In this document: in pieces, positions 25,221 to 52,916 of the stretch
Numbering within the stretch: the first letter of the stretch is position 1
How the letters are laid out: every line of letters starts with the position of its first letter
Origin: Naegleria gruberi
Taxonomy: Eukaryota
DNA: 64,000 nucleotides
Direction: 5' to 3' (one strand)
Assembly (NCBI GenBank): GCA_000004985.1
Contig: GG738870.1
Made by a program: the position numbers and the translations under genes
Notes under the pieces: generated by a model
Databases searched by the model: none
What the model saw: the letters and a program-made list of their open reading frames with translations, nothing else
What the model was told of the DNA's origin: nothing

Positions 25221-26664
25221 TGACAAGTAATCAGCACATTTACACGATTGCCAAAAACTTGAATATTGAACAAGACAAAATTGAAGAAATTGTTGACTGT
25301 GTCTTCAAGGTTGGTTTCGGATTTTGGTTTCTAATATGTTTTTGCAAAGGTAACAATTCATAATTCTTCAGCAACACGGAAAGTTGAACTGTTCGTAGTT
25401 AAAGCTGTACTAAAGTCAAACCATGCTGAAGCAGAAAGTAGAAGAAACTTTAATCATAAGCACTTGATGAAAACCTTTCTAATAAGAAATTTCACTTCTG
25501 CTACACATTATTATTTATTCAGTGAATATGTTGGCGAGCAAAACTTGGTACAATACCGAAAAAATGTTAAAGAATTGCATGAGGAAAGAGTTTGGGATTT
25601 TATTAATCAAATGTCAAAAGCTCTCAATTACATGAATTCATATCCACATTTTACCATTCATAGAGATTTTTAGACAGTTGTAGGTAGATAAAATTTTGTC
25701 CCCAAATTTTTTTTGGCCAAGTCGAAACTCCAGCCATTTTTAGCTTGCGATTTTAAAAAATGTTACAAGTCGAGAATAAACCGTTACATTAGTTGGCGCC
25801 ACGAAAGAAGACGTTACACTTTCATCAAATAAACTTTAATTTCATCAAACAAAAAAAACCAAACCTCTCTTCACTTTTTGGTTGTTTTCCAACACAGGAT
25901 TTCACTATTGGTGCAACAACAACAACATCTTGAGAAATAACATTGTCCTCCAACACTTTCTTCATGTCCCGTTTTTGTTGTCCCCAAGCCAAGCCTTTTA
26001 GACTTGTAAAAAAATATTGGTCAGAGCAACAAATGTCCATTACCTACAACTGTCTAGAGATTTTAAATTGGAAAACATTATTCTAAAGAGTGGACATGAT
26101 TTTCATCTTGTTTTGGCTGATTATGGATTATGTAAGAGTGAGCTCACTAATTATGTGATCAGTGACAGGGGAACATTTGAATTTAAAGCACCAGAATTGA
26201 AAAATCAAAAAGATGAACAAGATGTAGAATTCCCTTTCAAATGTGATGTTTATTCATTTGGGAGATCAATCATTCATTTCATTTTGGGAAGTCAATTTTT
26301 AACTCTCGCTCAAAATGAAATCATCCTTAAAAACGATCCAAATAAGAAAACAGTGATGGATCACCTTATGGATCATAAACCATCTGAGGCCCTTTTCGAA
26401 TTGATTGAGAATATGATTGAGGAAGATCCAAAGTTTAGATTTGATATTAAGGAAGTAATTGCCTTTTATGAAAACAACAGACCAAGCAAATCAAAGACAT
26501 CCTTAGTCTTTCCAAAACCTGGGGAAATGAAACAGAAGATATCTAACAAAACCCCAAATCAAAGAACATCTAATTCCACTTCCTCCTCCAACACTATTTC
26601 ACGCTCTAGTCAAGGAATATCCAAACAACATAAAACCAAAGATAGGAGAGGTACAAAAAGATAA
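25221..26664 (+). pseudogene. Tandem paralog of the 24085 kinase. It is N-terminally truncated with no glycine loop, and its catalytic-loop codons are interrupted by a 386-bp transposon, so it is a probable pseudogene.
   Basis: Exon 1 is MTSNQHIYTIAKNLNIEQDKIEEIVDCVFK, which ends at the same VFK|GTTTG junction as paralog 1 but lacks GxGxxG. Exon 2 is ...YLFSEYVGEQNL...HRDF. It is followed by the MITE at 25671..26056 and then resumes in the same frame with KLENIILKSGHDFHLVLADYGL...APELKN. An in-frame TAG is created by the first 3 nt of the insert. Confidence 0.55.
25671..26056. mobile_element. hAT-like non-autonomous DNA transposon (MITE) of 386 bp. It has perfect 16-bp TIRs and a perfect 8-bp target-site duplication, and is inserted in the kinase coding sequence.
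   Basis: TIRs TAGACAGTTGTAGGTA ... TACCTACAACTGTCTA. Direct repeat GAGATTTT at 25663..25670 and 26057..26064. Host codons on both sides are in the same phase (aga gat ttt), so precise excision restores HRDFKLENIIL. Confidence 0.65.
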
Positions 26665-33290: not shown

Positions 33291-35745
33291 TTATTGACAC
33301 ATATTTTCTGCTCTCCATGTAAATGCTTTAGTAACAGGTGGATAAAGAGCTGCCAAAAGAGCCAAAGTAAGATAAATCAAATAAAGTCCGATCAAATAAA
33401 CACCATACAGTTTTGGAGCTCTGAATTTGAAAGCAGGAACAACAATCACGGATGAAATTAGTGATATCAGCAAGAAAATGAATGAAACATTAACTGTTGG
33501 ATCTTCAGTGAGAGGGAAGCAGAACTTTGTCAACTGTATAGGATTAAATGTTAAGGCAACAAATAAACCGATCAATAAATTAAGCATAGGTCCAGCAAAT
33601 ACAGCACCCAGAGCCATACTAGGATATCCTTGCTTTGAAATCACAATATCTTCAAGTCCAAATATTAAAAACACATCTAAATTAATAATTACTTACCAGC
33701 AATCATATCTGAGATTGAATTTCCCCAAGACAAAACTGTAATAGCCAATACTGAGGTTGGAATGCCAACACTCAAACCTACTGCATCCAAAACATCCAAT
33801 AATTCATTTGCAACAATAAATATCCAAAAGATACACATTGGGAATGCAAACACAACAAATATTGGATGATATCTTGGAGGCTTATTTCTTCTTGTGGTAA
33901 AGAAAATAATAACAGAGAAGAAACTACCCACAATAATCAATATCACAGCAACTGGGAAAACTCCTCCAATCAAAAATATAAACTTATCATAACCAGGTAA
34001 TATCAAGATAAATAGTGGTGAAAATACTGGAATACACATAGCAAACCACTTGTTCCATTCTTCATCTTCACTCTTTGGAATAGTCAAATTTCTCAACAAA
34101 ATCCAAACCCATTCAAATAAGATGAAAGTAATCTTTTGGTACCAAGCCATGTCTGACCATCCAATAGAATCCAAAAACATTAAAACGTATTTCTTTGAGC
34201 CCTTTACCTCTTTCTCTTCTCCTTCCTTATCAGTAGGTTCTTGAACCTTTCTATCACTATTTTCATTTTGGAAATAATCAGTGATAATATATTTGTGTTC
34301 CTTTTCTTCGCCTTCAACATGTTCAGTTTTCTTTGATTCAATGATACCAACTTTAGGAATGTAATATCTTGAAGTAGCAACACGATCCAATGATTTGCTA
34401 TCCTTTACAGAAACTTCCTTGAATATGTCATTTCTAATAAATGTATGTCTCCATCCAGCCCATTGCTCTTCTTCTTCAGATTCACTTCCAGTATCTTCCT
34501 CAACTACTGCCTTGGCATCTGTGTCGATAAGTTCCACTTCTTGGTGTGTATTTTCTGGATTTTGAGAGGTTTGATCATTTTCAGTTTCAGATGGTGTTTG
34601 CTCTTGTGGGATTGAAATGTTGGAAGCCTCCCCTTCACCACTTCCTTCAATCAATCTTTGGCCAAGAGCAGTTTTTTGAAGCTTTGAGGCCTTTTGAGGG
34701 AGCCCCTTAAGTCTTTCTCTTCTTGCTTTGATTCTCTTGTAAACAATTCTTCCAATAATTACTGTTGATACATATACTACATAGATCAATACACAAATGA
34801 TTGATTCCCAAATGAATACTCTTCCGTCAATGTATAAATAAAAAGTGTATGCAACACTAACAATATAAAAGATAACATCTCTAATGAATGGTCTTCTTGC
34901 CAATCCTTTCACATCTGATAAAAGAACAATACCAGCCATAACACAAGATGTCACAAATGTACCACTACCAACTGGTTCACCAACACCAAATTCTGTGTTA
35001 CCATTTGCTACAATACCTACAATCTAATCGAATAATTTTAATTCATTAATATTTCAAGAGATTTTAGAGAACTTACAATAGATGAAAGATCTGTAATTTG
35101 TGTTAAAAAAACTCTATAAAATTCAAGAAACAACTTACCAGGAGCACCATTACCCAAAGCTAAAAGTGTAATACCAGCAAGGTTTGGAGAGAGGTTCAAA
35201 TAATTTGAAATTTTGATAAGGGAAGGTGAAAAGTATGCTTCTGCAGTATCACCCAACAAGTAGAAACATATCAGGACCACAAGAACAGCCAAAATATAAA
35301 AGACTGCTGGAGCCTCATGCAAATCTGTGCAATGAAGCAATTGGAGATACTTGTTGTCTGTGGCACATCCCGATTGATTCCAACTCAGATAACTACATGT
35401 CATATTATAAGGAACCGAGTCAAAATCACAACTTGTGGAAGCATTAATAGATATAAAGTATTGAATCAACACATCCTCATCATCATTTGTATTATTCTTA
35501 GCATCCATAACACTTTCAATCGAATAGTAGTTATTTAATGAATAGTAATCCCTTTGAAAGGATGGAAAATCTGGAATATATTCCCTAGAACTGGCATCCC
35601 TTAATATTGGTGCGTTGGTATGGGAAAAGATCAAGCTTATTCCCAGTGCAAGAGCAGAAACAACGCAGAGAAATAACAATTTGTACATCCACCATCTGTG
35701 TTTTTGCTCCTTTCTAATGCTCGTTCCGTGCAATACACTAACCAT
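33291..35745 (-). CDS. Sodium/calcium exchanger of the NCKX/CCX family (Na_Ca_ex, two alpha repeats). Three exons: 35139..35745, 33697..35016 and 33291..33649.
   Basis: Alpha-1 repeat GDTAEAYFSPSLIKISNYLNLSPNLAGITLLALGNGAPG | IVANGNTEFGVGEPVGSGTF. Alpha-2 repeat AVGLSVGIPTSVLAITVLSWGNSISDMIAG | DIVISKQGYPSMALGAVFAGPMLNLLIGL. Two GTAAGT donors (plus-strand ACTTAC) at the exon ends. A large acidic cytoplasmic loop lies between the TM bundles. Confidence 0.7.
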
Positions 35746-36316: not shown

Positions 36317-37934
36317 ATGGGAAGCTCCGACTATAAAACAAAATTTTCCATCAAGACTGTAGATTCTAACAATCAAACAGTAATTAAATCATTGGAAATA
36401 ACAATAACAAAGGACGATGAAGGACATTACATTCCACAACCAAACTTTTTTACGTGTTGTAGAAAAGGAGATCATGAAACTTTAAAATTATTAATTGAAG
36501 GATTTAAACACGGTTCGCTGACAATGGAAAATATATTGGCAAATAATAAGGATGAAGATAGTACTCATTCGTTTAGTATTTCGGGATTACATATTTTAAC
36601 AAAAATAGCTTCCTTCTTTTATGGAGGAAAATCAGATTCTTCAAGCTCGAGTGTTACCAACTTTCTATCACCCCATGGAAAGAATAGAAGTTTTCAAAGA
36701 TCTCCGCTGCATTATGCCTGTAGATTTGGTCACTTGGAATGTGTAAAATTACTGATCAATGAAGTATCACAACTTCAATTATTAGGTAAGTAGCAAATCA
36801 AATAGCTCATAAATTGACTTATTCATTTCTCCAGGAGAAACTTGTAACAAGTGGACAATTATACACGAATGTGCGAGATTTGGCCGAGTAGATGTATTAG
36901 CATTCCTCTTCTCACATCCTAGGACCATGGAATTTTGTAAAGCAATGTGCTCTAAAGCAACCAAGTTTGGAAGCACACCTCTTCATCTATCGTGCAAGTA
37001 TCGTTACTCTGATACTGCACAATTCCTCTCATCACAATTTATACCCTTCGATAAGATTAGTGTTTCAAGACAACAAAGCTTTCTTCATGTTGCTATTGAA
37101 GAAAAATTGAAACCTTTTGCTGTGGATTTTTTATCTCAATTTATGGCCAACTCTCCAATCACTCATATGAATAGAAAAACTATAATTAATATTGTGGAAT
37201 TGATATGCTCGAAAGATCAATTCAAAACTAATACATTACAATATGCAGCAGCAAAGCCATCAGATCAAATGTATGAAACATTGCTGAGTGCATTAACAAT
37301 TTTACATGAATATATGGAAAATGCTGGAATTGTAAGAAACTTGGTCGGATTGGATTTGGCTGGAAACAGTGTATTGCACTATGCTATGGGAGGAAATAGC
37401 ATGAAATGTGCTTCACTAATCTATCACTATTATTTATTGAGTATTTACCGTAGTAATCCCAACAGTATTGTGATAACTAATCGTAACATTAATGTAAACC
37501 ATGAACTTTTACATTCAAATAATAATCCAATGAATACTCAATCTGGTGTCATGAGACACTCACCACTTTTCCTTGCCTGTAAATATAACCACTCGAAACT
37601 CTTACAAAAATTCCTTCTATTTTACAAAGATGAAATTTATCAAATAGATTCTCAGAAACATTTACAACTGCTATACGAGGGAAACGAATCAAAATATGTA
37701 AAGACTGCACTGTATGACTTTTTAAAAATCAAATCTCAGGAAGAATTTGATTTTATTCTCCAATCATGGAAACAAATTAAGGTAACAGGAGTTGTTGATA
37801 GAATGGGTCATTCACCCTCCAGAGTTAACAAAATCGATGAAAGTGATGAGGAATTACATGAGTTATTTGAGAACTTTAACAAGTGGAAAATTGACTCATC
37901 AATGGCTCCATCAGCATCACTTGCTTTGGAATAA
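36317..37934 (+). CDS. Ankyrin-repeat protein. Two exons, 36317..36785 and 36835..37934.
   Basis: ANK motifs SPLHYACRFGHLECVKLLINE, GETCNKWTIIHECARFGRVDVLAFLF and TPLHLSCKYRYSDTAQFL. A 49-nt intron GTAAGTAGC...TTCTCCAG keeps the frame. Confidence 0.65.
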
Positions 37935-38521: not shown

Positions 38522-39346
38522 ATTAGTTTTGTATTATTCAGAAGAATTTAAATTTTCTCTTCACCGAGAATAATAATCGGTGATTTTAGATTATTCCGTG
38601 TCCTTTTATCAATAAACAAGGGTTTGTTTTATTTAAAAACCTGATGTGATGATATTAATTGAAGAGAATAATGAAGCAAAATTGAAAATATTAACAAAAG
38701 GAGAGAATCATCACAGTGATGATGATGACAATCTAAATATACAATCAATGGAAAACAAGACTGCCACTCCTCAACAACATAAGATAACACACCCCATCGG
38801 CTTCAACCACACAAAAACATCAAGTCTATCAAAATAGGGTGCTAAAAAACAAAAAAAATGATTGGCAGAAACAAGTAAGTAACTGATGCAAGTTACAGAT
38901 TTGGCCGACTCACACTCAAATAACATCATTATCTAACCGGTTGTCTATTTGCATATCCATTCATTACTCAATGTTTTAAATGTTCTCTCATCATTTGATG
39001 AAGACACCTCATCACTTCTCTCGGAAAGCATAATCTAAAAAAAAATCAGTCAATCCTCTCTTCTGTAAGCCACCGTTCACAACCAGCTTTATCGGCAGCA
39101 ACACATTTGATTGATCAACAACAATTGGAAAGAAAAACCTCTACAACAACATCACTCTCTTGTAAAAATTATCACACCAATATTAGTGGTTCAATTCCTT
39201 CTAATTGTAATTTACCAAGCCAACCTCGTAGTAGAAATACAAACAAAACACTAAAAGTAAGAGGAGATTCATCACTCATCACAACTAGTACTAAACAACA
39301 AAGAAATATATCAACATTTGTTTTTGACGAAGACGACGACGAAGAA

Positions 39347-41329
39347 ATGATTCAAAATAATTTGGTTTTTGATTTAACTCCTGAACAAATTGAAAAGGAA
39401 ACTGCTGCCTTAATTGAAAAATCAAGAGCTGTTCATGATTCTGTTGCAAAGCTTGCAGAATCTGAAAGAACTTTCCAATCAGTCGTTTTACCAATTGCTC
39501 AAGATGAAGCCTACTTCTCTGTACATGAAAATAATGTCACATTCCCTTCATATGTTAGTCCAGATAAAGCAGTCAGAGATGCTGCTTCTGCTGCTGAAGA
39601 AAAAATTTCAGAATTCACCATTGATATTTTGATGCGTGAGGATGTGTATAGAGCTGTTAAATATGTTTCTGATAAGATGCAATCTGAATTGGAAAAGTAT
39701 GACGAAGAAGATAAGAGACTTGTGAAGAGAATTCTCAGGGATTACGAAAGAAATGGATTGGGATTACCAGAAGATAAGAGAGCAGTTGTAAAGGATTTGA
39801 AGAATCAACTTTCCAAGTTGTGCATTCAATTCACCAAGAATGTTTCTGAAGATAAGACTGTCCTCCATTTCACAAAGGAAGAATTGGATGGAGTTCCAGA
39901 AGATGTCATTAATGACTTTAAGGTCTCTGAAGAAGATCCAAATAAGAGGGTTGTCTCAATGAAATATCCAGAAGTAATGCCAGTCATGAAATACTGTAAA
40001 GTTGAAGAAACAAGACGTAGATTGGATGTTGCTCGTTCTTCACAATGCCAAGAAGCTAACGTTCCATTGTTCGAACAAGCTGTCAAGATTAGACAAAAGA
40101 TTGCAGAAATTATGGGTTTCAAGACTCACTCTCACTATGTTTTGGATGTCAACATGGCTACTCCAGATGAAGTTTTAACCTTCTTGTACAATCTCAGAGA
40201 TAGACTTTTGGATGGTGGTAAACAAGAACTTGAAGTACTCAAACAATTGAAAGGATCTGAAGTTTTCTCATGGGATTACCTCTACTTGTTGACCAAGCTC
40301 AAGGAAGAACAATACAGTGTCGATGATAACTTGATTAAGGAATATTTCCCATTGGATTATACTCTTGATGGTTTACTGAGTATTGCTCAAGAAACTTTCT
40401 CTCTCAAGTTTGAAGAAGTTAAGGATGCTAAGGTCTGGTTTGAAGGTGTTAAATTATACAATGTTTTTGACAAGGAAACTGATGATCATTTGGGTCAATT
40501 CTATTTGGACTTTTTCGCTAGAGATGGCAAGTATAGCCACTTTGCTGCCTTCCCACTTTCTCCTCACTACTTTGATGCTGAAGGAAAGGAACAATTCCCA
40601 GTCACTGCCATGGTTTGTAACTTTACCAAACCATCAGCTGAAACTGGTGTCTCCCTCTTGAAGCATGATGAAGTCATCACATTACTCCATGAATTCGGTC
40701 ACTTGACTCACGGATTCTTGTCTAAGACTAAGTATGCTAGATTCAGTGGTACTCGTGTAGAAAGAGACTTTGTTGAAATGCCTTCTCAATTCATGGAAGG
40801 TTATGGATGGGAGACTCAAGGTTTGAAGAGATTGTCATCTCACTATAAGACTGGAGAAAAACTTCCAGATGATCTCATCAAGAAGATGATTGATGCCAAG
40901 AATGTTGGTGTTTCACTTTTCAACTTGCGTCAATTGTTCTTTGGTATCTTTGATATGACTTGCCATACTTTTACTTCTGCTGAAGAAGCTGAAAAGCTTG
41001 ACAGTGGTGCTTTGTGGAGAAAGCTTAGAAGAGAGGTTACCTTATTGGAAAATCCAGAAGGTACTAACGGAGTTGCTTCATTTGGGCATCTCATGGGTGG
41101 CTACGATTCTGGATATTATGGATATTTGTACTCTGAAGTTTTCTCTACTGACATGTTTGGAGAATTCAAGAAGCAAGGTATCTTCAATCCAGAAATTGGT
41201 AAGAAGTACAGAAAGCTCATTTTACAAAGAGGAGGATCTAAGGATGGTGGTGTCATGTTGAGAGAATTTTTGGGTAGAGAACCATCTCAAGATGCCTTCT
41301 TGGAAGATATTGGTTTGCTTAAGAAATAA
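39347..41329 (+). CDS. Thimet oligopeptidase / neurolysin / saccharolysin family metallopeptidase (M3A). Single exon.
   Basis: HEXXH zinc site LLHEFGHLTHGF. Conserved M3 C-terminal region GHLMGGYDSGYYGYLYSEVFSTDMF...GGSKDGGVMLREFLGREPSQDAFL. The first in-frame ATG at 39347 gives MIQNNLVFDLTPEQIEKETAALIEK, matching THOP1 N-termini. The ORF track starts further upstream at a TTG. Confidence 0.85.
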   Translation: MIQNNLVFDLTPEQIEKETAALIEKSRAVHDSVAKLAESERTFQSVVLPIAQDEAYFSVHENNVTFPSYVSPDKAVRDAASAAEEKISEFTIDILMREDVYRAVKYVSDKMQSELEKYDEEDKRLVKRILRDYERNGLGLPEDKRAVVKDLKNQLSKLCIQFTKNVSEDKTVLHFTKEELDGVPEDVINDFKVSEEDPNKRVVSMKYPEVMPVMKYCKVEETRRRLDVARSSQCQEANVPLFEQAVKIRQKIAEIMGFKTHSHYVLDVNMATPDEVLTFLYNLRDRLLDGGKQELEVLKQLKGSEVFSWDYLYLLTKLKEEQYSVDDNLIKEYFPLDYTLDGLLSIAQETFSLKFEEVKDAKVWFEGVKLYNVFDKETDDHLGQFYLDFFARDGKYSHFAAFPLSPHYFDAEGKEQFPVTAMVCNFTKPSAETGVSLLKHDEVITLLHEFGHLTHGFLSKTKYARFSGTRVERDFVEMPSQFMEGYGWETQGLKRLSSHYKTGEKLPDDLIKKMIDAKNVGVSLFNLRQLFFGIFDMTCHTFTSAEEAEKLDSGALWRKLRREVTLLENPEGTNGVASFGHLMGGYDSGYYGYLYSEVFSTDMFGEFKKQGIFNPEIGKKYRKLILQRGGSKDGGVMLREFLGREPSQDAFLEDIGLLKK

Positions 41330-41536: not shown

Positions 41537-43362
41537 ATGACCACTTTTTTAAATATCGGAGAGGTGATCATGTTGAGTTTGTCATGTAAATTAATCAACA
41601 AATTATTGAATGAACATATTCAAGCAATTCATCCCTATGTTAACACTCCATTTGGATGGTCAATTGGTCGCGCTTTACAGACACATCGAAAATTAGTGGT
41701 TAACACAAAGTCAATTGGACGAGTTAACAGAATATTTGATGAAGTGATTGAAAAGAATGAACCATTTTCTAAATTAGCTAGCCTAGTTGAGGTGAATGGA
41801 ATTGATGACAACATTTTCAAATTATTTTCCAAACCAACTAATCAACCAAAGGAAAATGTGAAATTTGTTCAACTTTCATGTGAAATAGATGAATCATCAT
41901 CCAGTTATTAAAACCCATTAAAATGTAAGAAATTTAGAGAGGAATCAATAATAGAAAGAAGTTTGACATCAACACCAATTGGTTTCGATGTGAAGAAGTT
42001 AGTACTAAATGAAGTGGAATTTCACAGGCCAGAGATTTACAAAATCCTGTCTCAATTTCTTTCTTTAGAAAGATTGAGTATCTCAATAATGCCAAGTCCA
42101 AATATTGTTGACGAGAGTTTCTCAATTGAAGTACCAGTACTGCAATCTTTAAAGTATCTCCATTTCGAGAAGAATTCGTTCAACTATGATGAAGATTTGG
42201 AGCTCAAGACTGCTTATGATTTGATCAAGCTTGCTCCCAATCTGGAGTATTTGGAGATTTTTTATATATAGTGACGATACAACTGTAAAGGTGTGGGATA
42301 CTTGGACTGGAAAGTGTTTGAAAACATTTGGTGGACATGTTTCGAATGTTTTTGCAGTTTCATTCCTTAATGGAAATGATAATATGGTGATTAGTGGAGG
42401 AAATGATTCAGATATTCTAACCTTTTGGTAATGACTTTCTTTCATTTCTCTCTGAAAAATGTCCTAATTTGAAAGGAATTTATATTGAAGTGAGTGGAGA
42501 TGCTGAAGATTTGAATTTCACTCATGAAGGAATTCTTCAATTCTTGAAGAAGGTACGAAAAATTTGAATATTTGAAATTTTCAAACTGTCAACAAGTTAG
42601 TGCAGAATTATTTTCTGAAATTGGACAATTTAATAACTTGAGATTTTTCTGAAGCACTTTCAACTGATAACAAATCTCAAGTTAAATTTGGTGGAGGAAC
42701 TCTTCACAAGTTGGAGCATTTCAATTGTGGTGGCATAATTCTATGCATTGATGAGGACGAGAATTTCATCAAATCATTCTTAAAGATGGCACCAAACATT
42801 AAGGATATTGGATCTCTTGGTATTATGCTTGGAAAGGAATGTTTGGATTTTTTTTTCCACTTTTAACTGTATTCCCCTTAATTGAAGGTGATACTTTCAT
42901 TTGTGTAAAAGAATGGTTAAAGAAATCTACAATTTTAGAGGAATTGGAGCTTAACACAAATTTGTTTGATTCACACCAATTAAATCCAATCCCATCTGTT
43001 AAGAAGCTCTCTACCAAATGTAGACAAGCATTCGAGATTTGGCTCGATTATTTCCTTCACTTACAGAACTTGACTTTATTCCTACCACTAGTGAAGAAAC
43101 GGAATTAATGGATATTTTAGAGAAGGGGCAATGGCCTAATCTGAAACAATTAAAATGTTTACAACAGTTGTCTAATAGGAAGAAACTGTTGACCATTAGG
43201 CCAAATCTGTATGGAGATAGAGTTAATGAATGTTTCGAGGATTTCAGAAAATATTGCAAGATTAAGGATGAAACTCTTCAATTTGAAAAGGAATGGCTGA
43301 TATTGGATGAATTTGAACAGGACTTTAATAAGACGGCAATGATTAAATTTATGAAAATATAA
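41537..43362 (+). CDS. Complex multi-exon F-box/LRR-like locus with an unresolved exon structure and a possible pseudogene. The 41537..41911 and 41963..42271 ORFs are in the same frame and can be joined by a 36-nt intron. Further LRR-like exons extend to about 43362.
   Basis: LRR-like stretches: LSLERLSISIMPSPNIVDESFSIEVPVLQSLKYLHFEKN..., FLSEKCPNLKGIYIEVSGDAEDLNFTHEGILQFLKK and MARLFPSLTELDFIPTTSEE.... Several candidate GT..AG junctions. Frames change between segments. Confidence 0.3.
42231..42431 (+). pseudogene. Isolated WD40-repeat fragment (about 1.3 repeats) embedded in the LRR locus. Either a frame-shifted exon or a gene fragment.
   Basis: YSDDTTVKVWDTWTGKCLKTFGGHVSNVFAVSFLNGNDNMVISGGNDSDILTFW is a textbook WD40 unit (GH...V.S..F.....ISG..D..I..W). 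It lacks upstream and downstream repeats and is followed by a stop. Confidence 0.35.
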
Positions 43363-43459: not shown

Positions 43460-44620
43460 TTATTTCAAAATGTAAACAGCAGAATTTTCCTTACTAGCAA
43501 CAACCAATTCACCATTTTGTCCATTGTAAGCAATTGCCAAATCACATCCATTGAAATTCTTTCCATCGACCTTTTCACAAATCTTGACACCAGATTCCTT
43601 TGTGATTAATTCAATTCTGCATTGTCCACTTGTCTTTTCAATACAGAAAATATCACCATTATCCAAGTGAATAATATCTCCAAGTCTTCCATAATTGTGA
43701 TTTCTATCGAGCTTGTTCAAGACTTTGCCCTTCTTTGACATGGAAACCAATTGATACTTGTTAGTTCCATCTCCAATACACAAATTTCCTTCCAAATCAA
43801 TTGAAACCATAGTTGCATTACTCAATAAACAATTACCATTTGAATCAGAACCCAAAGTATTAGTTACAGAACCATCCTTTCCATTCAAAACTCTAATATT
43901 TGCACTTCTATATTCACTAACAAGTAAATAAACAGTTGAATCACTATCAACACACAAATACAAGTCACCAGTTTCATTGTCAAATGACTTATTCCAGAAA
44001 ACAACCTTTCCATCAAGTGACATTTTAGTGACCCACTTTCTAGAATTACAAAAAACAATTGCATTATCATTGTAATCAATTCTCAAACAAGTAATGGTTT
44101 CTTCCTTAGGTGCCTTAAATTGATATTTGAACAAATGAGTTTTGGCATCGAATACATTAATAGTATAATGACATGCAACAAAAATCAATTGATTTTTAAC
44201 ATCAACTGCACATGTCATTGGATAATCCAAATTAATGTTAGTTTCGTCCTTATCGCCCAACTTGCAAACCTTTTTAAATTCACCACTGAATGGAACTGAT
44301 TTACAACCAACCATGGAAACTTTGTGTTGTGAAAGTTTTGGTGAACGATCGTGAATTTTCTTGTGTAAATCACACAATTTCACACCACCACATTCGGCAC
44401 ATTCGTATTGAGCTGGCCAAGTTTCTCCATGAAACTTTTCACAATGAGAACAGTTATTAGAATTCAAACTCTTCACTTGGGATGCATGATCCTTTGTTTT
44501 GGCAGATGAATTATGGAATGACAAGTGTCCTTCACAGAAATTTAATTTACATGTTGGACATGCATGAGTTGCTTCGGTTTTTTCATCATCTTGAGAACAT
44601 TTATCACAAAAGACAGTCAT
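43460..44620 (-). CDS. B-box zinc-finger plus NHL-repeat protein (TRIM-NHL-like without a RING). Single exon.
   Basis: Two Cys/His B-box-like clusters, CDKCSQDDEKTEATHACPTCKLNFCEGHLSFH and CSHCEKFHGETWPAQYECAECGGVKLCDLHKKIH. The C-terminal beta-propeller repeats are DLYLCVDSDSTVYLLVSE and GELVVASKENSAVYILK. ATG at plus 44618..44620. Confidence 0.65.
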   Translation of the reverse strand: MTVFCDKCSQDDEKTEATHACPTCKLNFCEGHLSFHNSSAKTKDHASQVKSLNSNNCSHCEKFHGETWPAQYECAECGGVKLCDLHKKIHDRSPKLSQHKVSMVGCKSVPFSGEFKKVCKLGDKDETNINLDYPMTCAVDVKNQLIFVACHYTINVFDAKTHLFKYQFKAPKEETITCLRIDYNDNAIVFCNSRKWVTKMSLDGKVVFWNKSFDNETGDLYLCVDSDSTVYLLVSEYRSANIRVLNGKDGSVTNTLGSDSNGNCLLSNATMVSIDLEGNLCIGDGTNKYQLVSMSKKGKVLNKLDRNHNYGRLGDIIHLDNGDIFCIEKTSGQCRIELITKESGVKICEKVDGKNFNGCDLAIAYNGQNGELVVASKENSAVYILK

Positions 44621-45243: not shown

Positions 45244-45754
45244 ATGGCAACTTGGTCATCAGGTTTATTTGACTGTGTTGATGATACAAACTCGTGCATG
45301 TATTCATTTGTTTGTACTCCTTGTGCAATGGCAAATGCTAAATCACATGTTGATGGATCTTTTTGGATTTTCAATTGTTTGATATCAACTTTCATTCCAT
45401 GTATTGCTTCACCTGCTTATAGACATACAATTAGAAGTAGTTACGGAATCAAGGTTTGTGTTATTCTTCTTGTTACATTCCGATAGAAATTTTAATTTTT
45501 ATTCGAATGTTGTTTTTTATTCGAAATTTGTGTGATGGAAATTTGTATTTAAATATATTATAGGGAAATATTACTAATGATTGTGCTACTGGAGTGATTT
45601 GTTCGTGTTGTTCAACAGCTCAACTTTTGAGAGAAGCTCAAGGTTAGTAGTTTGATGAAATATTTATTTATTCGAAAATTTGGATAAACTAATGTAATGC
45701 GATGTTGTTTTTTTGGATATAGCAAGAGGACCAAGTACATATTCCATGTTCTAA
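45244..45754 (+). CDS. PLAC8 (FW2.2/cornifelin-like) cysteine-rich domain protein. Three exons: 45244..45453, 45564..45642 and 45723..45754.
   Basis: WSSGLFDCVDDTNSCMYSFVCTPCAMA ... NDCATGVICSCCSTAQLLREAQ. Introns start with GTTTGT and GTTAGT, end with TATAG, and keep the frame. Confidence 0.7.
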
Positions 45755-45940: not shown

Positions 45941-48730
45941 TTACATTCCATTACTACTTATTGAACTTGCAGTGTTTCCACTACTTGCACTACTACTTGC
46001 ACCATCTGATTGATTCTTCAATGCAACTCTATAGGCCAAGTGTAACCAAGGAGTGTAGAGATTCTCACCACTCATTGAGCTCAATTCAAAGTAGAGCATA
46101 TTGTTGGTGAAGAGTTTGATTCTGGAACCACCATAGGAATGAAGGAATTGAGTGATTCTTTCGTTGGATATTTTAGGTTCCAGATCAGATTTCAATCCAC
46201 AAACGAACACGTAAATATCCTCATTTTGTAAGCACTTTTCAAATAGATTTCTATTTTCTAACAAGTTAAGCTCTGGTGATTTGGTTGCTTGTTGTTTGAA
46301 AATGTACTTGTCGAATAGCTGTAACATATCATCGAATGATTCTGGTCTACTCAAATCAAAACAGAGCATGATTGCTTTGCAAACTTTCAAATAGAGTGGA
46401 ATTAAATTAAGGAATCTTTTCATACCAGAAGTGTCCCATACACTCAGAGAAATGATTGGATTGTACCTTGTCATGATATAGCTGTCAGCCTCTGATGAAA
46501 TTGAATCATCATCTTCCTGAATTTCTGCTGTACCCGTTGGTGTTGGCAAATTAACTTTCACATGTTTCATCAAGTAGGTAGCGCCAATAGTTGATTCAAT
46601 ATATTCAATCTTTTTCACTCGACTTCTATGTTCTACTGTATCTAAATGATTTGAGATGGCCTCCTTCAACATGTAGACCCAAGAGGATTTTCCAGAGGTA
46701 GAATCACCAATGAGACAGACCTTAATTTCGATCATACTCAATCGATATTCTAAACTTTGTGTATTTACATTGTTATGGAATGCACAATAGTTCATCCATG
46801 GTCCATTTCTATAACCCTTATAGATGGATTTATAGATATTCTTCCAACTACTTAGAACCATGGTTGTTTTTTCCTGTGAGAATGGTGAACTCTCTATCAA
46901 CTCTCTGAGGGTAATGTGATCGATGAAGGATGATCCTTGTTTCTTCTCTCTGTCATCAAAGGTTTCAGCAAATTCTGAACTGCTACTCAAATCTGACATA
47001 CTCAAGTTATTGAGATTGTATGGATAGCTAATCCACAACAATGGATGTTCTGTCCAAATGTAGTGGAAAGATCTGCTGACACGACTCAGGTCAATCAAAT
47101 CTGGAGCTGATAGATAGGATAATATGTGGAACATGATTTCATATGGTACGCTCTCTTCGAGTTGACTCAATGAAATCGATCTTTTACCAAAATCACAATT
47201 ATCCTTCCATCCACCATATTCAAAACGAGCATTTAACACTTTTGAATAGCATTCTCTTCTACATTCTCGAGGGGATTTTGGGATCTTCTTTTCTGATGAT
47301 TTCAAATCGTGTGGGCTGGTCTTCTTTTCTGATGAGGGTGTTGGAGTTTTTGGAGTGGTAGTAGAGGGGTTAAGAGTTGTGGAGATTGCAGAATCAGATC
47401 GAAGGGGAGTAATTGGAGTGGGATTATAATTTGAATTCATGGAAGGAGAAAGAAGGTATGAATTCTGTTGAGTGGAAGAAGAAGGAGATTGAGAGGAACC
47501 AAACATGAGGAATGCTCTTCCTCTTGGTCTTTGAAAAGAATTTGGGGAGGACAGGTAATTGGAAGAGGCGATTGAAGTGGAAGGAGAGCCGAGTGTGGTA
47601 TTGGCCAAAGACGACATGATCATTGTTTCATTTGAGATTACAGTGGAGGAGGTTGTCAAGGTGGTACTCACAAGAGAGGGCATTGTAGTGGCTGAGGCAC
47701 CTGTTGTTTCTACAGTGGAAGTGCTACAGCTTGGTGATATTCCTTTTTTACCCATGATCTCTCGTTTCTCATCAGAATTGGATTGAATTTGTCGGGGTGA
47801 TGATTTGGTTGGTTGCTCGCAATGTATAAAATAATCGTCGTCTATTATTTGTGGATCTGATTCCTCTTCATACTCATCATCATTATATTGAGCTATGAAG
47901 GGAATTACTGTTTTTGGAGGAGAGAGTCTCTTATTCACAACAACTGATTCAAACATTGAGAAGGCAATTTCATAAAATTGTGGATCATTTTCTGGATCCA
48001 AATGTATGGTCCAATCAAAGTTTTCCTTTTCAAAATATGAATCAATCAATTGATGCATTCTTCTATTATAATAGTCGTAGTGAGATTTTGGATACAGGCT
48101 CAAACATTGGTGATCAGCGTGATGATGCACAATTTCACCAATATCATTTTTAGAAATTATAGCACTATCATCCATGTGGCTTCTCAAATAATTCCTCGAA
48201 GTTCTGAATGATGTAAAAACCCCAGCACTTGAATCAACTCCTGTTCTACTTGTTGTTACATCTGTATCTTCTTCTCCAATCAGATCTTGTCCAAAGTCCC
48301 TTCTTGAAAAAGAAGTGGCCAGCAAAGTCAACCCAGGACCTCCTTTCTTTTTAATTTCTCTTCTCTTTGATTGGATATCCATTCCACTACTCGTTGTTGG
48401 TGTAGATTGTTGTTCATTCACTAGTCCTCTATTTTCATTATTCGTTGATGATAACATGTTGATTCCTTGAGGAGTTGAAGGTTGTTGTTGTGGTGAATTA
48501 TTCATCCCTGTTGCTTGATTTTTTCTGTACATTTGATTAACTCGTAAGCTTCCATAATATGATCCTTTAGAAGGACTATTGGCTGATGAATTTAACTGAT
48601 CATTGTTCATAATGATCGGTGATGAAGATGGATTATTGGAAGGATGGGGTGTTGGTATCGATGAAACTTCTTTACTTTCATCATCCTGGGAATTTGAACC
48701 AGAAAGTGCTGATGATCCGTGTTGTCCCAT
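45941..48730 (-). CDS. Large protein combining an S/T/N-rich N-terminus, an F-box and a divergent Ras/Rab-like GTPase domain.
   Basis: F-box IMFHILSYLSAPDLIDLSRVSRSFHYIW. G-domain motifs are G1 KVCLIGDSTSGKS, G3 WDTSGMKRF, a G4-like VCGLKSDL and a G5-like SSMSG. 929-aa uninterrupted ORF. Confidence 0.6.
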   Translation of the reverse strand: MGQHGSSALSGSNSQDDESKEVSSIPTPHPSNNPSSSPIIMNNDQLNSSANSPSKGSYYGSLRVNQMYRKNQATGMNNSPQQQPSTPQGINMLSSTNNENRGLVNEQQSTPTTSSGMDIQSKRREIKKKGGPGLTLLATSFSRRDFGQDLIGEEDTDVTTSRTGVDSSAGVFTSFRTSRNYLRSHMDDSAIISKNDIGEIVHHHADHQCLSLYPKSHYDYYNRRMHQLIDSYFEKENFDWTIHLDPENDPQFYEIAFSMFESVVVNKRLSPPKTVIPFIAQYNDDEYEEESDPQIIDDDYFIHCEQPTKSSPRQIQSNSDEKREIMGKKGISPSCSTSTVETTGASATTMPSLVSTTLTTSSTVISNETMIMSSLANTTLGSPSTSIASSNYLSSPNSFQRPRGRAFLMFGSSQSPSSSTQQNSYLLSPSMNSNYNPTPITPLRSDSAISTTLNPSTTTPKTPTPSSEKKTSPHDLKSSEKKIPKSPRECRRECYSKVLNARFEYGGWKDNCDFGKRSISLSQLEESVPYEIMFHILSYLSAPDLIDLSRVSRSFHYIWTEHPLLWISYPYNLNNLSMSDLSSSSEFAETFDDREKKQGSSFIDHITLRELIESSPFSQEKTTMVLSSWKNIYKSIYKGYRNGPWMNYCAFHNNVNTQSLEYRLSMIEIKVCLIGDSTSGKSSWVYMLKEAISNHLDTVEHRSRVKKIEYIESTIGATYLMKHVKVNLPTPTGTAEIQEDDDSISSEADSYIMTRYNPIISLSVWDTSGMKRFLNLIPLYLKVCKAIMLCFDLSRPESFDDMLQLFDKYIFKQQATKSPELNLLENRNLFEKCLQNEDIYVFVCGLKSDLEPKISNERITQFLHSYGGSRIKLFTNNMLYFELSSMSGENLYTPWLHLAYRVALKNQSDGASSSASSGNTASSISSNGM

Positions 48731-50564: not shown

Positions 50565-52916
50565 ATGAATTCATACGAAAGTTTAAAAACTATTCGAATC
50601 CCTGTGGAGGTGAAGAAGCACGTTTCTCATGGATCAACAGCTTCTACCAACACATCACTAGAAGATCAAATAGTTCACCAACTAATGAATTACAGTGAAG
50701 ATGCCGTTGTAAAGGGCTACCTTTCCCTCCACGTGCCACTTCCACCTAATCTTGTAAATTATTCGAAAGATTTCTCAACCGATCCACAAACTTTAGAACA
50801 ATTCATGAGTGATTCCAATCCAAGAATTGAAACTTGTAAGCCACGCCATCAAGATAGACAACACCAACATGAAATTAAGAGAGTTTCTGCATCGATCAAG
50901 AGCCAAGTTGAAAAACAAAGTCAACCAGAAAACAAGGTTGACAAAAGTCAATGGATTGCCAGGGCAATGAAGAGAAATCCACATATATTGGCTTTATTGG
51001 AAAGGTCTCGTCCACTGAATAATCAACCATCCCTATCAATGATCAAACCAAGACAATCATCAACAAATTCTAGTCAACCGACAAGTGAAACTAATTCTCC
51101 AAGAAGTACTGCCTCTCCAACAGTTGCCACTGATCACAATCCAGGAGGAACTGTTAATATGGATCTACTCTCTTCAAAGGGAAGAGATTCAATGAAGTCA
51201 TCACTCACAGAATCACCAAACTCTAGCTCTCATAATTTGCTCAAGTACATGTCAGCTGTTCAAGTTGACCAACAGATTGTGACCAATATTGAAGAAAAGA
51301 AGAGCATTTTAGACTATTCCACCTTCTTGGGAACTGTTGAAAATAAGGAAGTTCTCCCTCGTGAAGGATTACTTCAAATCATTTATCAATTCATGGCTCA
51401 GAAAGGTTATTACAATACCATTAAGGAAATGGAAAAGGAAACTGGTATAAAATATAATGGTTTCAGATCTGAGAAGGCTTCTAATAGGGATACTCTGATG
51501 GAAACTCTACTAAGTCTCGGAATTCAAGATGCTGAAAATCCATATCAATTACCACCTTCAGATTTTGTGAATGTTAACAAAGATAGTGAGATTCCAACGG
51601 CAAGCATTCATCATCATTACGATCCAAAGTTCGTCAAGGAAATGCAAATACCATTGTGGGAAGAGTTAGCTCAATCTGATGAAGATTCAATTGTAATGGA
51701 GGGAAAGGAAGTCAAAGCAGCAACCCTTAATAGACTGATTGAAATGGTGACAAGCACTGAAGCAGATACCAAGATTGGAATTCAAAGTTTCTTGGTGACT
51801 TATCGTTCTTTCACTGATCCTGGAATTCTTTTGAAGAAATTATGTGAAAGATATCAAGTTCCAAATCGTATTCCATCCAGTGAGAGAATTCAGATCCAAT
51901 TGAGAACTAGTGCTGTTTTCATCAAATGGATTGAAGATTACTTCTCATGGGATTGGAATGATAACATGATTTATGAATTCTTGCTATTCATTGACAAGTA
52001 TATTATGAAAGATAAGAAAATTGTGGGAGACAAACTCAAACAGAAATTAGCTCAAAAATTAGTTTTCAAGAGTAAGGACAATACTCTGGTATTTAGTGAA
52101 CAGTTTATTTATCCAGAGGTTCCAAAAAATGTATTCTCTTCCAAGTTATCTATTTGGGATATTAAGGATGAAGAGTTGGCAAAGCAATTGACATTTATGG
52201 ATCATAACATTTATAGAAATATTGAACCACATGAATTGTTGGATTGTGCTTGGTCAAAGGCAAATCTTAGACATAGAGCAAAGAATATTCTTCAATCCAT
52301 TTCGTATGTAGAAACCCTATCAAATTGGTTAGAATGTCAAATTGTAAGAGAAGAATCTTTGAGAGAAAGAAAGATGAAACTTTCCAGATTGATGAAACTT
52401 GCCATTCTCATGAACAAGCTCAACAATTTCAATTCTCTAATGGCACTGTCTTCCACCTTCAACAAATCCTCAGTACATCGTCTCAAATTTACAATTGCAG
52501 AAATAGACGAAACTCTAAAAAAGGAATTTGATGAAGCCATTGCCATTGTCGATCCAAAGAAACAGAAAAACTATTCCACTCTTCGTAATCACATCAAGAA
52601 AGTTGCCAAACCTCCACTAAATGTCTTCCTAGGAGTTTATCAAACCGATCTCATCATGATTGAGGAAGGAAATCCTGATTTCACATCCAATTCCAATGAA
52701 AGAACATTAATTAATTGGAAGAAGAGAAGATTAGTAGCAACTACCATATCAGAAGTGATGGATTTCAAGAATCCACCGTATAACATTAGACCAGTTCAAC
52801 AAATTCAAGAATTATTGAGGACAACTTTTGAAAATCATGACATTACTGATGTGTATGATATTTCAATGCAAGTTGAGCCTAGAAATACTGTTAGAAAAGA
52901 AGATTTAGTTCCATAA
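50565..52916 (+). CDS. Ras guanine-nucleotide exchange factor with a LisH motif, a RasGEF N-terminal domain and a CDC25-type catalytic domain. Single exon.
   Basis: LisH-like LLQIIYQFMAQKGYYNTIKEMEKETG. RasGEF-N LNRLIEMVTSTEADTKIGIQSFLVTYRSF. Catalytic motifs LTFMDHNIYRNIEPHELL...NNFNSLMALSSTFNKSSVHRL...PLNVFLGVYQTDLIMIEEGNPD. Confidence 0.8.
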   Translation: MNSYESLKTIRIPVEVKKHVSHGSTASTNTSLEDQIVHQLMNYSEDAVVKGYLSLHVPLPPNLVNYSKDFSTDPQTLEQFMSDSNPRIETCKPRHQDRQHQHEIKRVSASIKSQVEKQSQPENKVDKSQWIARAMKRNPHILALLERSRPLNNQPSLSMIKPRQSSTNSSQPTSETNSPRSTASPTVATDHNPGGTVNMDLLSSKGRDSMKSSLTESPNSSSHNLLKYMSAVQVDQQIVTNIEEKKSILDYSTFLGTVENKEVLPREGLLQIIYQFMAQKGYYNTIKEMEKETGIKYNGFRSEKASNRDTLMETLLSLGIQDAENPYQLPPSDFVNVNKDSEIPTASIHHHYDPKFVKEMQIPLWEELAQSDEDSIVMEGKEVKAATLNRLIEMVTSTEADTKIGIQSFLVTYRSFTDPGILLKKLCERYQVPNRIPSSERIQIQLRTSAVFIKWIEDYFSWDWNDNMIYEFLLFIDKYIMKDKKIVGDKLKQKLAQKLVFKSKDNTLVFSEQFIYPEVPKNVFSSKLSIWDIKDEELAKQLTFMDHNIYRNIEPHELLDCAWSKANLRHRAKNILQSISYVETLSNWLECQIVREESLRERKMKLSRLMKLAILMNKLNNFNSLMALSSTFNKSSVHRLKFTIAEIDETLKKEFDEAIAIVDPKKQKNYSTLRNHIKKVAKPPLNVFLGVYQTDLIMIEEGNPDFTSNSNERTLINWKKRRLVATTISEVMDFKNPPYNIRPVQQIQELLRTTFENHDITDVYDISMQVEPRNTVRKEDLVP

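Follow-up and report, generated by a model that had tools for sequence, protein, structure and literature searches.

The frame at 45941..48730 (minus strand) of the 64,000-nucleotide stretch of Naegleria gruberi DNA analysed here (the window) is an intact single-exon gene under purifying selection. Its product unites a genuine F-box with a genuine small-GTPase fold, an arrangement kept in orthologues and in about 30 paralogues. The protein, RabX13c, is a member of a family expanded in Naegleria and Willaertia, in which an N-terminal F-box is followed by a divergent Rab-like GTPase domain. By analogy with the Rab40-Cullin5 ligase, we lean towards reading it as a membrane-tethered SCF substrate receptor in which the Rab-like domain would be the binding module.

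Gene structure, orthologues and published classification

The gene was defined as follows.

45941..48730, minus strand: complete single-exon gene for XP_002676828.1 (EFC44084.1, D2VGL1), the RabX13c orthologue, 929 aa plus stop codon

ORF analysis showed that the 2790-nt frame is uninterrupted and begins with ATG; the closest in-frame stop upstream of M1 lies 14 codons away, with no Met in between. The translated ORF matched the NCBI protein XP_002676828.1 with 100% identity and 100% coverage. Because this gene model equals the ORF over all 929 residues, the gene is single-exon. A preliminary description of this DNA had proposed, with the strand left unstated, a single 929-aa ORF carrying an F-box followed by a divergent Rab/Ras-like GTPase domain, and this proposal was borne out by Pfam, by a structure model and by the fused order kept in N. 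fowleri, in an environmental relative and in about 30 paralogues. The HMM searches that it had suggested both scored above cutoff (F-box PF00646, aa 528-565, 32.2 bits, cutoff 20.5; Ras PF00071, 43.4 bits, cutoff 21.6). It had also asked whether an intron or stop separates the two modules; there was no stop or frame change between them in the ORF, and the NCBI gene model was identical.

The N. fowleri orthologue FDP41_012690, which we take to be the catalogued NfowleriV212_g172.t1 (RabX13c), is a protein of 954 aa encoded by a single 2865-nt gene. It has the same module order and aligned end to end with the N. gruberi protein (50% identity by MAFFT, 45% by BLASTP). Identity between the two species was 69% in the F-box, 59% in the linker between the modules, 66% in the GTPase domain and 28-43% in the N-terminal part. 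The dN was 0.27 in the conserved modules versus 0.80 in the N-terminal part; dS was saturated, so contrasts in dN alone are reported. The two loci were partially syntenic, with a Na/Ca-exchanger gene downstream on the same strand in N. gruberi as well as in N. fowleri. An environmental orthologue, P0006 (765 aa), carries the modules in the same order.

An exhaustive HMMER search, combined with a local F-box HMM and the published table, gave a census of 31 F-box Rab-likes, with members in Willaertia too, and 125 F-box-less matches. Word-indexed homologue searches gave 2, 1 and 4 proteins; the full-length search scored the 8000 candidates that shared most words, and low-complexity sequence may have dominated these candidates. 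No other F-box-Rab paralogue was found by tblastn within the 64-kb window, and the weak matches at 41873-42546 were not significant. A RasGEF gene neighbours the locus at 50565-52916. We set aside the idea that it encodes a dedicated partner: in N. fowleri the two genes are not neighbours, and the GTPases on which RasGEF domains act are of the Ras/Rap type rather than Rabs. A scan for bacterial-type promoters and terminators, a type of scan irrelevant to a eukaryote, returned no more matches than expected from shuffled sequence.

RabX13c, its architecture and the functional hypothesis have all been published, so that the finding is correct and not new. Table S8 of Herman et al. (2021, BMC Biol 19:142) enters XP_002676828.1 as "Rab + F-box" and pairs it one-to-one with its N. 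fowleri orthologue NfowleriV212_g172.t1 (RabX13c), and the novelty implied by the preliminary description was lost with this entry. That study classed the protein as a divergent lineage-specific Rab paralogue and described three subgroups of Rab-like proteins, specific to Naegleria, that are extended N-terminally by an F-box (Herman et al. 2021, Additional files 4 and 10). XP_002676828.1 belongs to the same family as the RabX13 subgroup of Naegleria and does not differ from it in kind. The F-box is the commonest extra domain on Naegleria GTPases, and for the F-box GTPases "GTPase-dependent ubiquitination" was proposed and a role at the organism-environment interface was suggested (Herman et al. 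2021 supplement), although a specific functional prediction was not possible according to the authors. The fusion, which had been called uncommon, is so in eukaryotes generally, but not in Naegleria, where it forms a large family. What is added here to that supplement is that the catalytic Gln is lost, that most members start with Met-Gly, that RabX13c has an extension of about 520 aa and that the family has members in Willaertia.

Pseudogenes occur in the Naegleria F-box Rab-like family (Herman et al. 2021 supplement), and the locus might likewise be a pseudogene, or adjacent F-box and small GTPase genes, read as one ORF. However, the frame is unbroken, the two modules are likewise contiguous in the N. 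fowleri gene, in about 30 paralogues and on a contig from the environment, their linker is itself conserved (59%), and dN is far below the saturated dS. An annotation artefact is thus extremely improbable.

The F-box, the linker and the two ends of the protein

The following features lie outside the GTPase domain.

47033..47152, minus strand: F-box, aa 527-566, VPYEIMFHILSYLSAPDLIDLSRVSRSFHYIWTEHPLLW, from Pfam PF12937 and PF00646
46736..47032, minus strand: linker between F-box and GTPase domain, aa 567-665, from the AF2 model and the paralogue alignment
48710..48730, minus strand: N-terminus MGQHGSS, in which we infer a candidate N-myristoylation site (Gly2 and Ser6)
47165..48730, minus strand: N-terminal extension of about 520 aa, Ser/Thr/Asn/Pro-rich and of low complexity, from alignments with orthologues
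48299-48325, minus strand: conserved block LLATSFSRR in the N-terminal extension, from orthologue alignments
48068-48097, minus strand: conserved block LYPKSHYDYY in the extension, from the same alignments
47969-48001, minus strand: conserved block LDPENDPQFYE in the extension, from the same alignments
47507-47530, minus strand: conserved block RPRGRAFL in the extension, from the same alignments
47219-47260, minus strand: conserved block RRECYSKVLNARFE in the extension, from the same alignments
45944..45997, minus strand: C-terminal Ser-rich tail of 18 residues, ending in SSISSNGM, absent from the N. fowleri orthologue

The F-box-like profile PF12937 matched aa 527-566 with 37.4 bits (cutoff 24.3). 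When a family F-box profile was compared with PDB, it matched FBXW8, KDM2A/B, FBXL5, FBXO4, FBXW7, Cdc4, Skp2, FBXO3, FBXL2 and cyclin F; 23 of the 24 matches with E <= 0.1 are named F-box proteins, and the other is an unnamed mouse sequence. The family profile was needed for this comparison, as a PDB search with the single sequence of the F-box and linker returned chance matches only (E > 0.4). In the AF2 model the F-box is a short helical bundle, and the linker comprises a disordered insert (about aa 568-606) followed by conserved helices (about aa 605-648). The linker was modelled with low confidence, and the model says little on how the F-box and the GTPase domain pack. The Rab-like GTPase domain (aa 666-911) lies C-terminal to the F-box after a 100-aa linker, which is the layout of F-box proteins.

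The MGQ start is kept in N. fowleri (MGQHQVS) and in P0006 (MGQQGSR); position 6 in N. fowleri is Val, which makes the myristoylation context there imperfect. Across the census, an MG start was present in 25 of the 31 F-box Rab-likes versus 4 of the 125 F-box-less matches. At the other end, the last 18 residues of RabX13c contain no Cys and hence no prenylation motif (CC, CxC, CCxx or CaaX). Cys was missing from the last five residues in 28/31 F-box Rab-likes and present there in 88/125 F-box-less matches. The MG starts and the loss of the C-terminal Cys suggest that F-box Rab-likes are N-myristoylated instead of prenylated.

The N-terminal 499 aa gave no Pfam match and no PDB sequence match. 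The disordered extension is specific to the RabX13c orthogroup, where it probably adds regulatory or docking sites. A small hairpin (47507-47523) coincides with part of the RPRGRAFL codons and does not exceed chance level.

The Rab-like GTPase domain

The GTPase domain and its motifs were located as follows.

45998..46735, minus strand: divergent Rab-like small-GTPase domain, aa 666-911, from Pfam Ras and Roc, AF2 and Foldseek
46685..46708, minus strand: G1 or P-loop GDSTSGKS, aa 675-682, with the canonical motif GxxxxGK[ST]
46574..46594, minus strand: G2 or switch I STIGATY, aa 713-719, with the conserved Thr714, from alignments
46457..46552, minus strand: b2-b3 hairpin insert of some 32 aa, aa 727-758, DDDSISSEADSYIM, rich in Ser and acidic residues and predicted to be disordered
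46418..46435, minus strand: G3 or switch II DTSGMK, aa 766-771, motif with DxxG intact
46184..46198, minus strand: G4-like motif GLKSD, aa 845-849
46073..46087, minus strand: G5-like ELSSM, aa 882-886, degenerate relative to the E-[TS]-S-A-K of Rabs

Besides Ras, the Roc family PF08477 matched with 36 bits (cutoff 27). An AF2 model built from 5 sequences had a pLDDT of 52 and was unusable; the model from 61 sequences, which was used, had a pLDDT of 77.7, with the GTPase core above 90. Its elements follow the canonical order b1-a1-b2-b3-a2-b4-a3-b5-a4-b6-a5, with extra helices, so that as modelled the domain has the six-stranded sheet and five helices of the G-domain fold. The b2-b3 insert had no secondary structure and low pLDDT in the model. 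In the family alignment it was found in the RabX13c orthogroup only, and DDDSISSExDSYIM within it is kept in N. fowleri.

The best PDB sequence matches were to RhoE/Rnd3 (E 5.5e-9), with Ser at the catalytic-Gln position in the alignment, whereas the best structural matches were to Rabs, not Rho: Foldseek returned Rab7, Rab8a, Rab5 and Rab27a (target TM about 0.8, E about 1e-11). RabX13c and Rnd3/RhoE have in common CFD[IL]SRPE and a WDTSG after which comes a residue other than Gln; Rnd proteins differ in being stand-alone, farnesylated, of the Rho family and without an F-box. Rnd3 is hydrolysis-deficient; Rnd3/RhoE proteins are constitutively GTP-bound and exemplify a GTPase domain to which GTP binds without being hydrolysed. 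Most HMMER matches outside the F-box family showed the Rab hallmarks WDTAGQER and a C-terminal Cys. According to these matches, Foldseek and the class assigned by Herman et al. (2021), the nearest relatives of the domain are Rabs.

This kinship, together with the predicted lipid anchor, which suggests a membrane role, would also suit an unconventional Rab acting in membrane traffic, with an F-box that engages Skp1, or a different partner, independently of Cul1. A model for such a role is the yeast F-box protein Rcy1, which works with Skp1 in endosomal recycling. However, BTB domains, which are also implicated in ubiquitin ligases, are fused to Naegleria Ras and Arf/Arf-like GTPases, which points to ubiquitination as a common theme (Herman et al. 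2021 supplement), and we regard a role outside SCF as quite unlikely.

The motifs GDSTSGKS and DTSGMK, quoted in the preliminary description, were found exactly, as were its degenerate G4 and G5 as GLKSD and ELSSM. The G, G and K of the P-loop were invariant across 20 members in the family alignment; the P-loop reads GGSGTGKS in N. fowleri and GDCSGKS, one residue short, in P0006. The switch I Thr was nearly invariant in the F-box Rab-like family and in canonical Rabs, and so was DxxG. In contrast, the position of the catalytic Gln is occupied by Met770 in N. gruberi and by Val in N. fowleri and P0006. WDxxGQ was present in 1 of the 31 F-box Rab-likes versus 107 of the 125 F-box-less matches, and a recognisable WDxxG was missing in 9/31. 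At G4 the protein has LKSD (aa 846-849) in place of [NT]KxD, with Lys and Asp kept and Asn changed to Leu; the family consensus is G-[LM]-K-x-D. At G5 the first Ser of ELSSM is kept and Ala-Lys is changed; the family consensus is YFELSSK.

Judged from these motifs, nucleotide binding is plausible, and binding of guanine nucleotide is probable because the P-loop, the switch I Thr, DxxG and the G4 Lys and Asp are retained. The change of the G4 Asn to Leu and the degenerate G5 could weaken it, and since the P0006 P-loop is one residue short, nucleotide binding may be non-essential in the RabX13c orthogroup. Intrinsic hydrolysis is doubtful. The lost Gln, the G4 change and the short P-loop of P0006 argue against a classical self-timed GTP/GDP switch. 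Because the catalytic Gln and the G4 Asn are lost, a Rnd/RhoE-like module that is permanently GTP-loaded or dependent on GAP/GEF would be likelier than such a switch.

The same losses (catalytic Gln, G4 Asn and the degenerate G5), the shortened P0006 P-loop and the 9/31 members without a recognisable WDxxG would fit a pseudo-GTPase, that is, a rigid scaffold for protein interaction that binds no nucleotide. This is unlikely: GxxxxGKS, the switch I Thr, DxxG and the G4 Lys and Asp are kept in both N. gruberi and N. fowleri, and the invariance of the P-loop G, G and K is hard to explain without nucleotide binding.

Proposed function and comparison with known systems

In the substrate-receptor reading, the F-box is predicted to dock on Skp1-Cul1-Rbx1. 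SCF is pan-eukaryotic, and Skp1 and Cul1 are for that reason presumably present in N. gruberi. The Rab-like domain would take the place that WD40 or LRR domains hold in other F-box proteins and would capture effector-like partners for ubiquitination. Membrane targeting would be achieved through the predicted N-myristoylation of Gly2, not through C-terminal prenylation, and the disordered N-terminal arm of about 520 aa would probably supply the regulatory or docking sites. RabX13c would thus do with SCF what the Rab40-Cullin5 ligase does in animals.

Auto-ubiquitination is common among F-box proteins, and the F-box might mainly couple the GTPase itself to SCF or to auto-ubiquitination, which would make RabX13c a Rab-like regulator with a short life and a controlled dose. 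Candidate phospho-degron sites for such turnover are numerous in the acidic, Ser-rich insert and in the disordered N-terminal region, and the authors of the TbFRP study suggested a link between the F-box of that protein and its observed rapid proteolysis and density-dependent levels (PMC3593210). On the other hand, the F-box is a Skp1-docking element, not a degron, and receptors are typically laid out as here, with the F-box ahead of a folded binding domain. The expansion to dozens of paralogues whose GTPase surfaces have diversified also fits a diversified recognition of targets better, and self-directed turnover appears rather unlikely.

TbFRP of Euglenozoa is a FYVE-F-box-GTPase for which turnover was proposed, with the F-box upstream of a Rab-like GTPase domain (PMC3593210). 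It resembles RabX13c in having the F-box and then the Rab-like GTPase domain in one polypeptide, and differs in its N-terminal FYVE domain, which binds PI3P (PMC3593210); no Pfam match to a FYVE zinc finger was obtained in RabX13c. An N. gruberi orthologue was not found by the TbFRP authors (PMC3593210). The preliminary description had proposed either an SCF adaptor whose recruitment depends on the nucleotide state or a GTPase degraded through its own F-box; this idea is plausible and fits the published speculation on the family and on TbFRP.

Returning to the receptor reading, the closest parallel in function would be Rab40, in which a GTPase with a SOCS box acts with Cul5 as a substrate receptor and ubiquitinates its own effectors, and which arose in bilaterians by duplication of Rab18 (PMC10509765). 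As in RabX13c, a Rab-type GTPase domain is fused to a docking motif for a cullin-RING ligase. The two differ in that the SOCS box is C-terminal and serves Elongin B/C-Cul5, whereas the F-box of RabX13c is N-terminal and predicted to serve Skp1-Cul1. Rab40 is prenylated. No SOCS-box family was among the Pfam matches of RabX13c at E <= 1, and since a SOCS match, the C-terminal Cys and the catalytic Gln are all missing, RabX13c originated independently of Rab40, to which it would be analogous in function only. RhoBTB is a fusion of the same general kind, of a divergent GTPase domain from the Ras superfamily with a domain linked to ubiquitin ligases; it is a Cullin3 adaptor with an atypical GTPase domain and differs from RabX13c in the docking domain (BTB rather than F-box), the cullin and the GTPase subfamily. 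No Pfam match to a BTB domain was obtained in RabX13c.

A wider reading, which we put forward tentatively, is that the vahlkampfiid F-box Rab-likes form a large, independently evolved set of N-myristoylated, hydrolysis-deficient SCF receptors, a counterpart of Rab40-CRL5 with dozens of paralogues. They may share an F-box-GTPase ancestor with the euglenozoan FRP, and RabX13c may be a specialised member among them, with its disordered arm and the short conserved motifs in it as a second docking platform.

If the Naegleria proteins are SCF receptors, evolution has joined a Rab-like domain to a cullin ligase on at least two occasions, and in Naegleria a large family has grown out of this pairing. 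That would be of moderate interest for how GTPase and ubiquitin signalling evolved, and for the biology of N. fowleri, a lethal pathogen that carries orthologues of the RabX13c gene. Discoba includes both Euglenozoa and Heterolobosea, and if the F-box-GTPase ancestor was common to the Naegleria proteins and the euglenozoan FRP, GTPase-guided ubiquitination would be an old trait of Discoba.

Gene model and domain architecture

The preliminary description of a single 929-aa ORF joining an F-box to a divergent Ras-like GTPase domain was borne out. The ORF occupies 45941..48730 (-) and starts with ATG; an in-frame stop lies 14 codons 5' of M1 with no intervening Met, so M1 is the earliest possible start. 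Its product and N. gruberi XP_002676828.1 (EFC44084.1, D2VGL1; annotated as 'rab family small GTPase') showed 100% identity across the full 929 residues, which means that the public gene model consists of this one exon. In a Pfam profile search, F-box-like PF12937 (aa 527-566; 37.4 bits, curated cutoff 24.3), F-box PF00646 (32.2 bits, cutoff 20.5), Ras PF00071 (43.4 bits, cutoff 21.6), and Roc PF08477 (36 bits, cutoff 27) all exceeded their cutoffs. The quoted motifs GDSTSGKS (aa 675-682), DTSGMK (aa 766-771), GLKSD (aa 845-849), and ELSSM (aa 882-886) were exact. The description is correct, and its interpretation of the fusion, as an SCF adaptor or a GTPase degraded through its own F-box, is reasonable. 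The protein is arranged as follows:

aa 1-522, N-terminal extension, Ser/Thr/Asn/Pro-rich and of low complexity
aa 527-566, F-box, detected by Pfam
aa 567-665, linker, with conserved helices after a disordered insert
aa 666-911, G domain

The family F-box profile matched PDB F-boxes including those of FBXW8, KDM2A/B, FBXL5, FBXO4, FBXW7, Cdc4, Skp2, and cyclin F. That the combined F-box and GTPase ORF is an annotation artefact is the least likely of the explanations considered, since the conserved linker and the identical module order in about 30 paralogues argue that a gene-fusion artefact is very unlikely.

Orthologues and genomic context

The N. fowleri orthologue in the RabX13c orthogroup, FDP41_012690, has 954 aa (50% identity in the MAFFT alignment, 45% by BLASTP), the same Pfam domains, and an uninterrupted gene of 2865 nt. 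A third orthologue, P0006 (765 aa), was found on a 5.3-kb environmental contig (JGI/ENA). The region of aa 1-522, which had no match in Pfam or PDB, is fast-diverging (28-43% identity to N. fowleri, dN 0.80); synonymous sites were saturated in the compared modules of the gene, so that the ratio was not computable for those modules. Within this region, the short blocks LLATSFSRR, [LK]YPKxHY, LDPENDxQFYE, RPRGRAFL, and RRxxYxK[VI]LxxRFE were kept in all three orthologues. Paralogues of 300-440 aa in the family alignment carry no such extension.

The other genes of the window are as follows:

4660-6147 (-), DHHC palmitoyltransferase
8616-11246 (-), RasGEF-type gene, 876-aa ORF with a RasGEF_N motif
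24429-25214 and 26017-26664 (+), protein-kinase fragments spread over two ORFs
33689-34954 and 35038-35745 (-), Na/Ca-exchanger gene, two ORFs (N. fowleri counterpart, 13788-16345 of locus L002)
36317-37934 (+), ankyrin-repeat ORFs
39107-41329 (+), M3-family oligopeptidase
43460-44620 (-), 386-aa ORF with two N-terminal Cys/His-rich, B-box-like zinc-finger stretches
45244-45486 (+), 80-aa ORF matching the PLAC8 family domain over its first three quarters
50565-52916 (+), RasGEF gene, 783-aa ORF with RasGEF_N and RasGEF domains

In N. gruberi the Na/Ca-exchanger gene is presumably split by an intron. Both species have such a gene downstream of the F-box-Rab gene and on its strand; this partial synteny was the only one seen between the two loci. 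Two RasGEF-type genes are located in the 64-kb window, and the one with the 783-aa ORF is divergently transcribed from the F-box-Rab gene, at a distance of about 1.8 kb on its upstream side; no RasGEF gene was called within the 8-kb flank on each side of the N. fowleri orthologue. The PLAC8 ORF, immediately downstream of the F-box-Rab gene, probably represents exon 1 of a small gene with at least one intron. In the 386-aa ORF, a beta-propeller-like repetitive region follows the zinc-finger stretches, and no Pfam match was obtained at E <= 0.001. The kinase, DHHC, M3, and ankyrin genes are ordinary eukaryotic content.

GTPase fold and nucleotide competence

An AlphaFold2 model of aa 520-929 (61 sequences) had a pTM of 0.70 and a mean pLDDT of 77.7, rising above 90 in the core of the G domain. 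Three elements were added to the canonical order (b1-a1-b2-b3-a2-b4-a3-b5-a4-b6-a5): a further helix in the switch I region, another between a3 and b5, and, in the b2-b3 hairpin, an insert of about 32 aa that is acidic, Ser-rich, and disordered. The top Foldseek matches in PDB were Rab7, Rab8a, Rab5, and Rab27a (E ~1e-11, target-normalised TM ~0.8).

G1 (GxxxxGKS), DxxG, and Thr714 of switch I are preserved, and across the family they vary little or not at all. G4 (LKSD) retains Lys and Asp with Leu for Asn, and G5 (ELSSM) departs from the canonical motif. Nucleotide binding is probably retained in the N. gruberi and N. fowleri proteins. In P0006, the P-loop GDCSGKS is one residue short of GxxxxGK[ST] while the remaining G domain is well conserved; the residue may be missing through an error in sequencing or assembly, or else the RabX13c orthogroup may be able to dispense with nucleotide binding. 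A rival explanation is that the domain is a pseudo-GTPase serving as a nucleotide-free scaffold.

Where Ras and Rab proteins have their catalytic Gln, directly after DxxG, the N. gruberi protein has Met and the two orthologues have Val. In the PDB sequence search RhoE/Rnd3 scored best (E 5.5e-9) and likewise carries WDTSG with a residue other than Gln behind it; Rnd3 is constitutively GTP-bound. Intrinsic GTP hydrolysis thus seems unlikely. TBC-domain RabGAPs provide the catalytic Gln in trans and RapGAP provides Asn, and therefore the Rab-like domain may still undergo GAP-driven cycling.

Family signature and proposed function

An exhaustive HMMER search together with cluster members gave 156 proteins, in which the family-type F-box was detected by a local HMM.

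Table. Sequence features of the 156 proteins with and without the family-type F-box
Feature; F-box present; F-box absent
Met-Gly start; 25/31; 4/125
Cys within last five residues; 3/31; 88/125
WDxxGQ present; 1/31; 107/125

By these counts, the F-box Rab-likes have, as a class, lost the catalytic Gln, and a probable myristoyl anchor at the N-terminus has taken the place of the C-terminal Rab prenyl anchor. The CaaX motif noted in one of three F-box Rab-like subgroups (Herman et al. 2021 supplement, PMC8296547) is compatible with the three C-terminal-Cys exceptions.

Members were also found in N. lovaniensis and Willaertia magna, and the latter extend the range beyond the 2021 statement of 'no close relatives outside Naegleria'. 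P0052 (W. magna KAL9642240.1, 925 aa) is another long F-box Rab-like; the extra length of RabX13c lies in its N-terminal arm, whereas P0052 owes its own to large Asn-rich inserts within the G domain and to about 330 additional residues at the C-terminus. P0014, from the metamonad Paratrimastix pyriformis (KAJ4456396.1, 732 aa), contains three tandem F-box-like and Rab-like modules, starts with MGQ, and has other residues where the catalytic Gln would be (WDVNGC, WDIGGK, WDISGK). F-box-Rab-like fusions are therefore not confined to Heterolobosea, and the resemblance reflects either homology or convergence. P0117, a transcript of the amoebozoan Stenamoeba stenopodia (283 aa), encodes a Rab-like protein without an F-box; its start, MGQHASLS, nearly matches the N. 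gruberi N-terminus, and WDTAGMKR likewise has Met at the catalytic-Gln position.

The N. gruberi gene has already been catalogued, as one of a published Naegleria family. Herman et al. 2021 (BMC Biol 19:142, PMC8296547) re-annotated the full Ras-superfamily complement of N. gruberi and N. fowleri; in their Table S8, XP_002676828.1 is entered as 'Rab ... F-box', and the term 'F-box' appears 72 times. They put forward 'GTPase-dependent ubiquitination', considered a specific prediction of function impossible, and noted the lack of genetic tools. Thus, both the architecture and the hypothesis of the preliminary description are already in print. F-boxes also occur on some Legionella Rab-like effectors. 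A related architecture, FYVE-F-box-GTPase, was described in 2013 for TbFRP of Euglenozoa; its authors found no Naegleria orthologue and proposed a role for the F-box in rapid turnover (PMC3593210). Similar self-directed turnover is a rival explanation here.

In its module order the protein resembles a standard F-box substrate receptor in which the Rab-like domain takes the place of the usual WD40 or LRR module. The closest functional precedent is Rab40, whose SOCS box recruits Elongin B/C-Cullin5; Rab40 ubiquitinates its own effectors, and according to a 2023 review no other small monomeric GTPase has a direct part in mediating ubiquitylation on present evidence (PMC10509765). Based on this layout and precedent, we favour a membrane-tethered SCF receptor, in which a mostly GTP-locked Rab-like domain would present effector-like partners to Skp1-Cul1-Rbx1. 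Alternatively, a Skp1 complex independent of Cul1 might act in membrane traffic. The class-level pattern is an addition of the present analysis. What remains of value in the locus beyond the published record is the signature shared across the family (an initial Met-Gly, with neither a prenyl Cys nor the catalytic Gln), together with the disordered arm particular to RabX13c and a possible connection with the FRP proteins of Euglenozoa.
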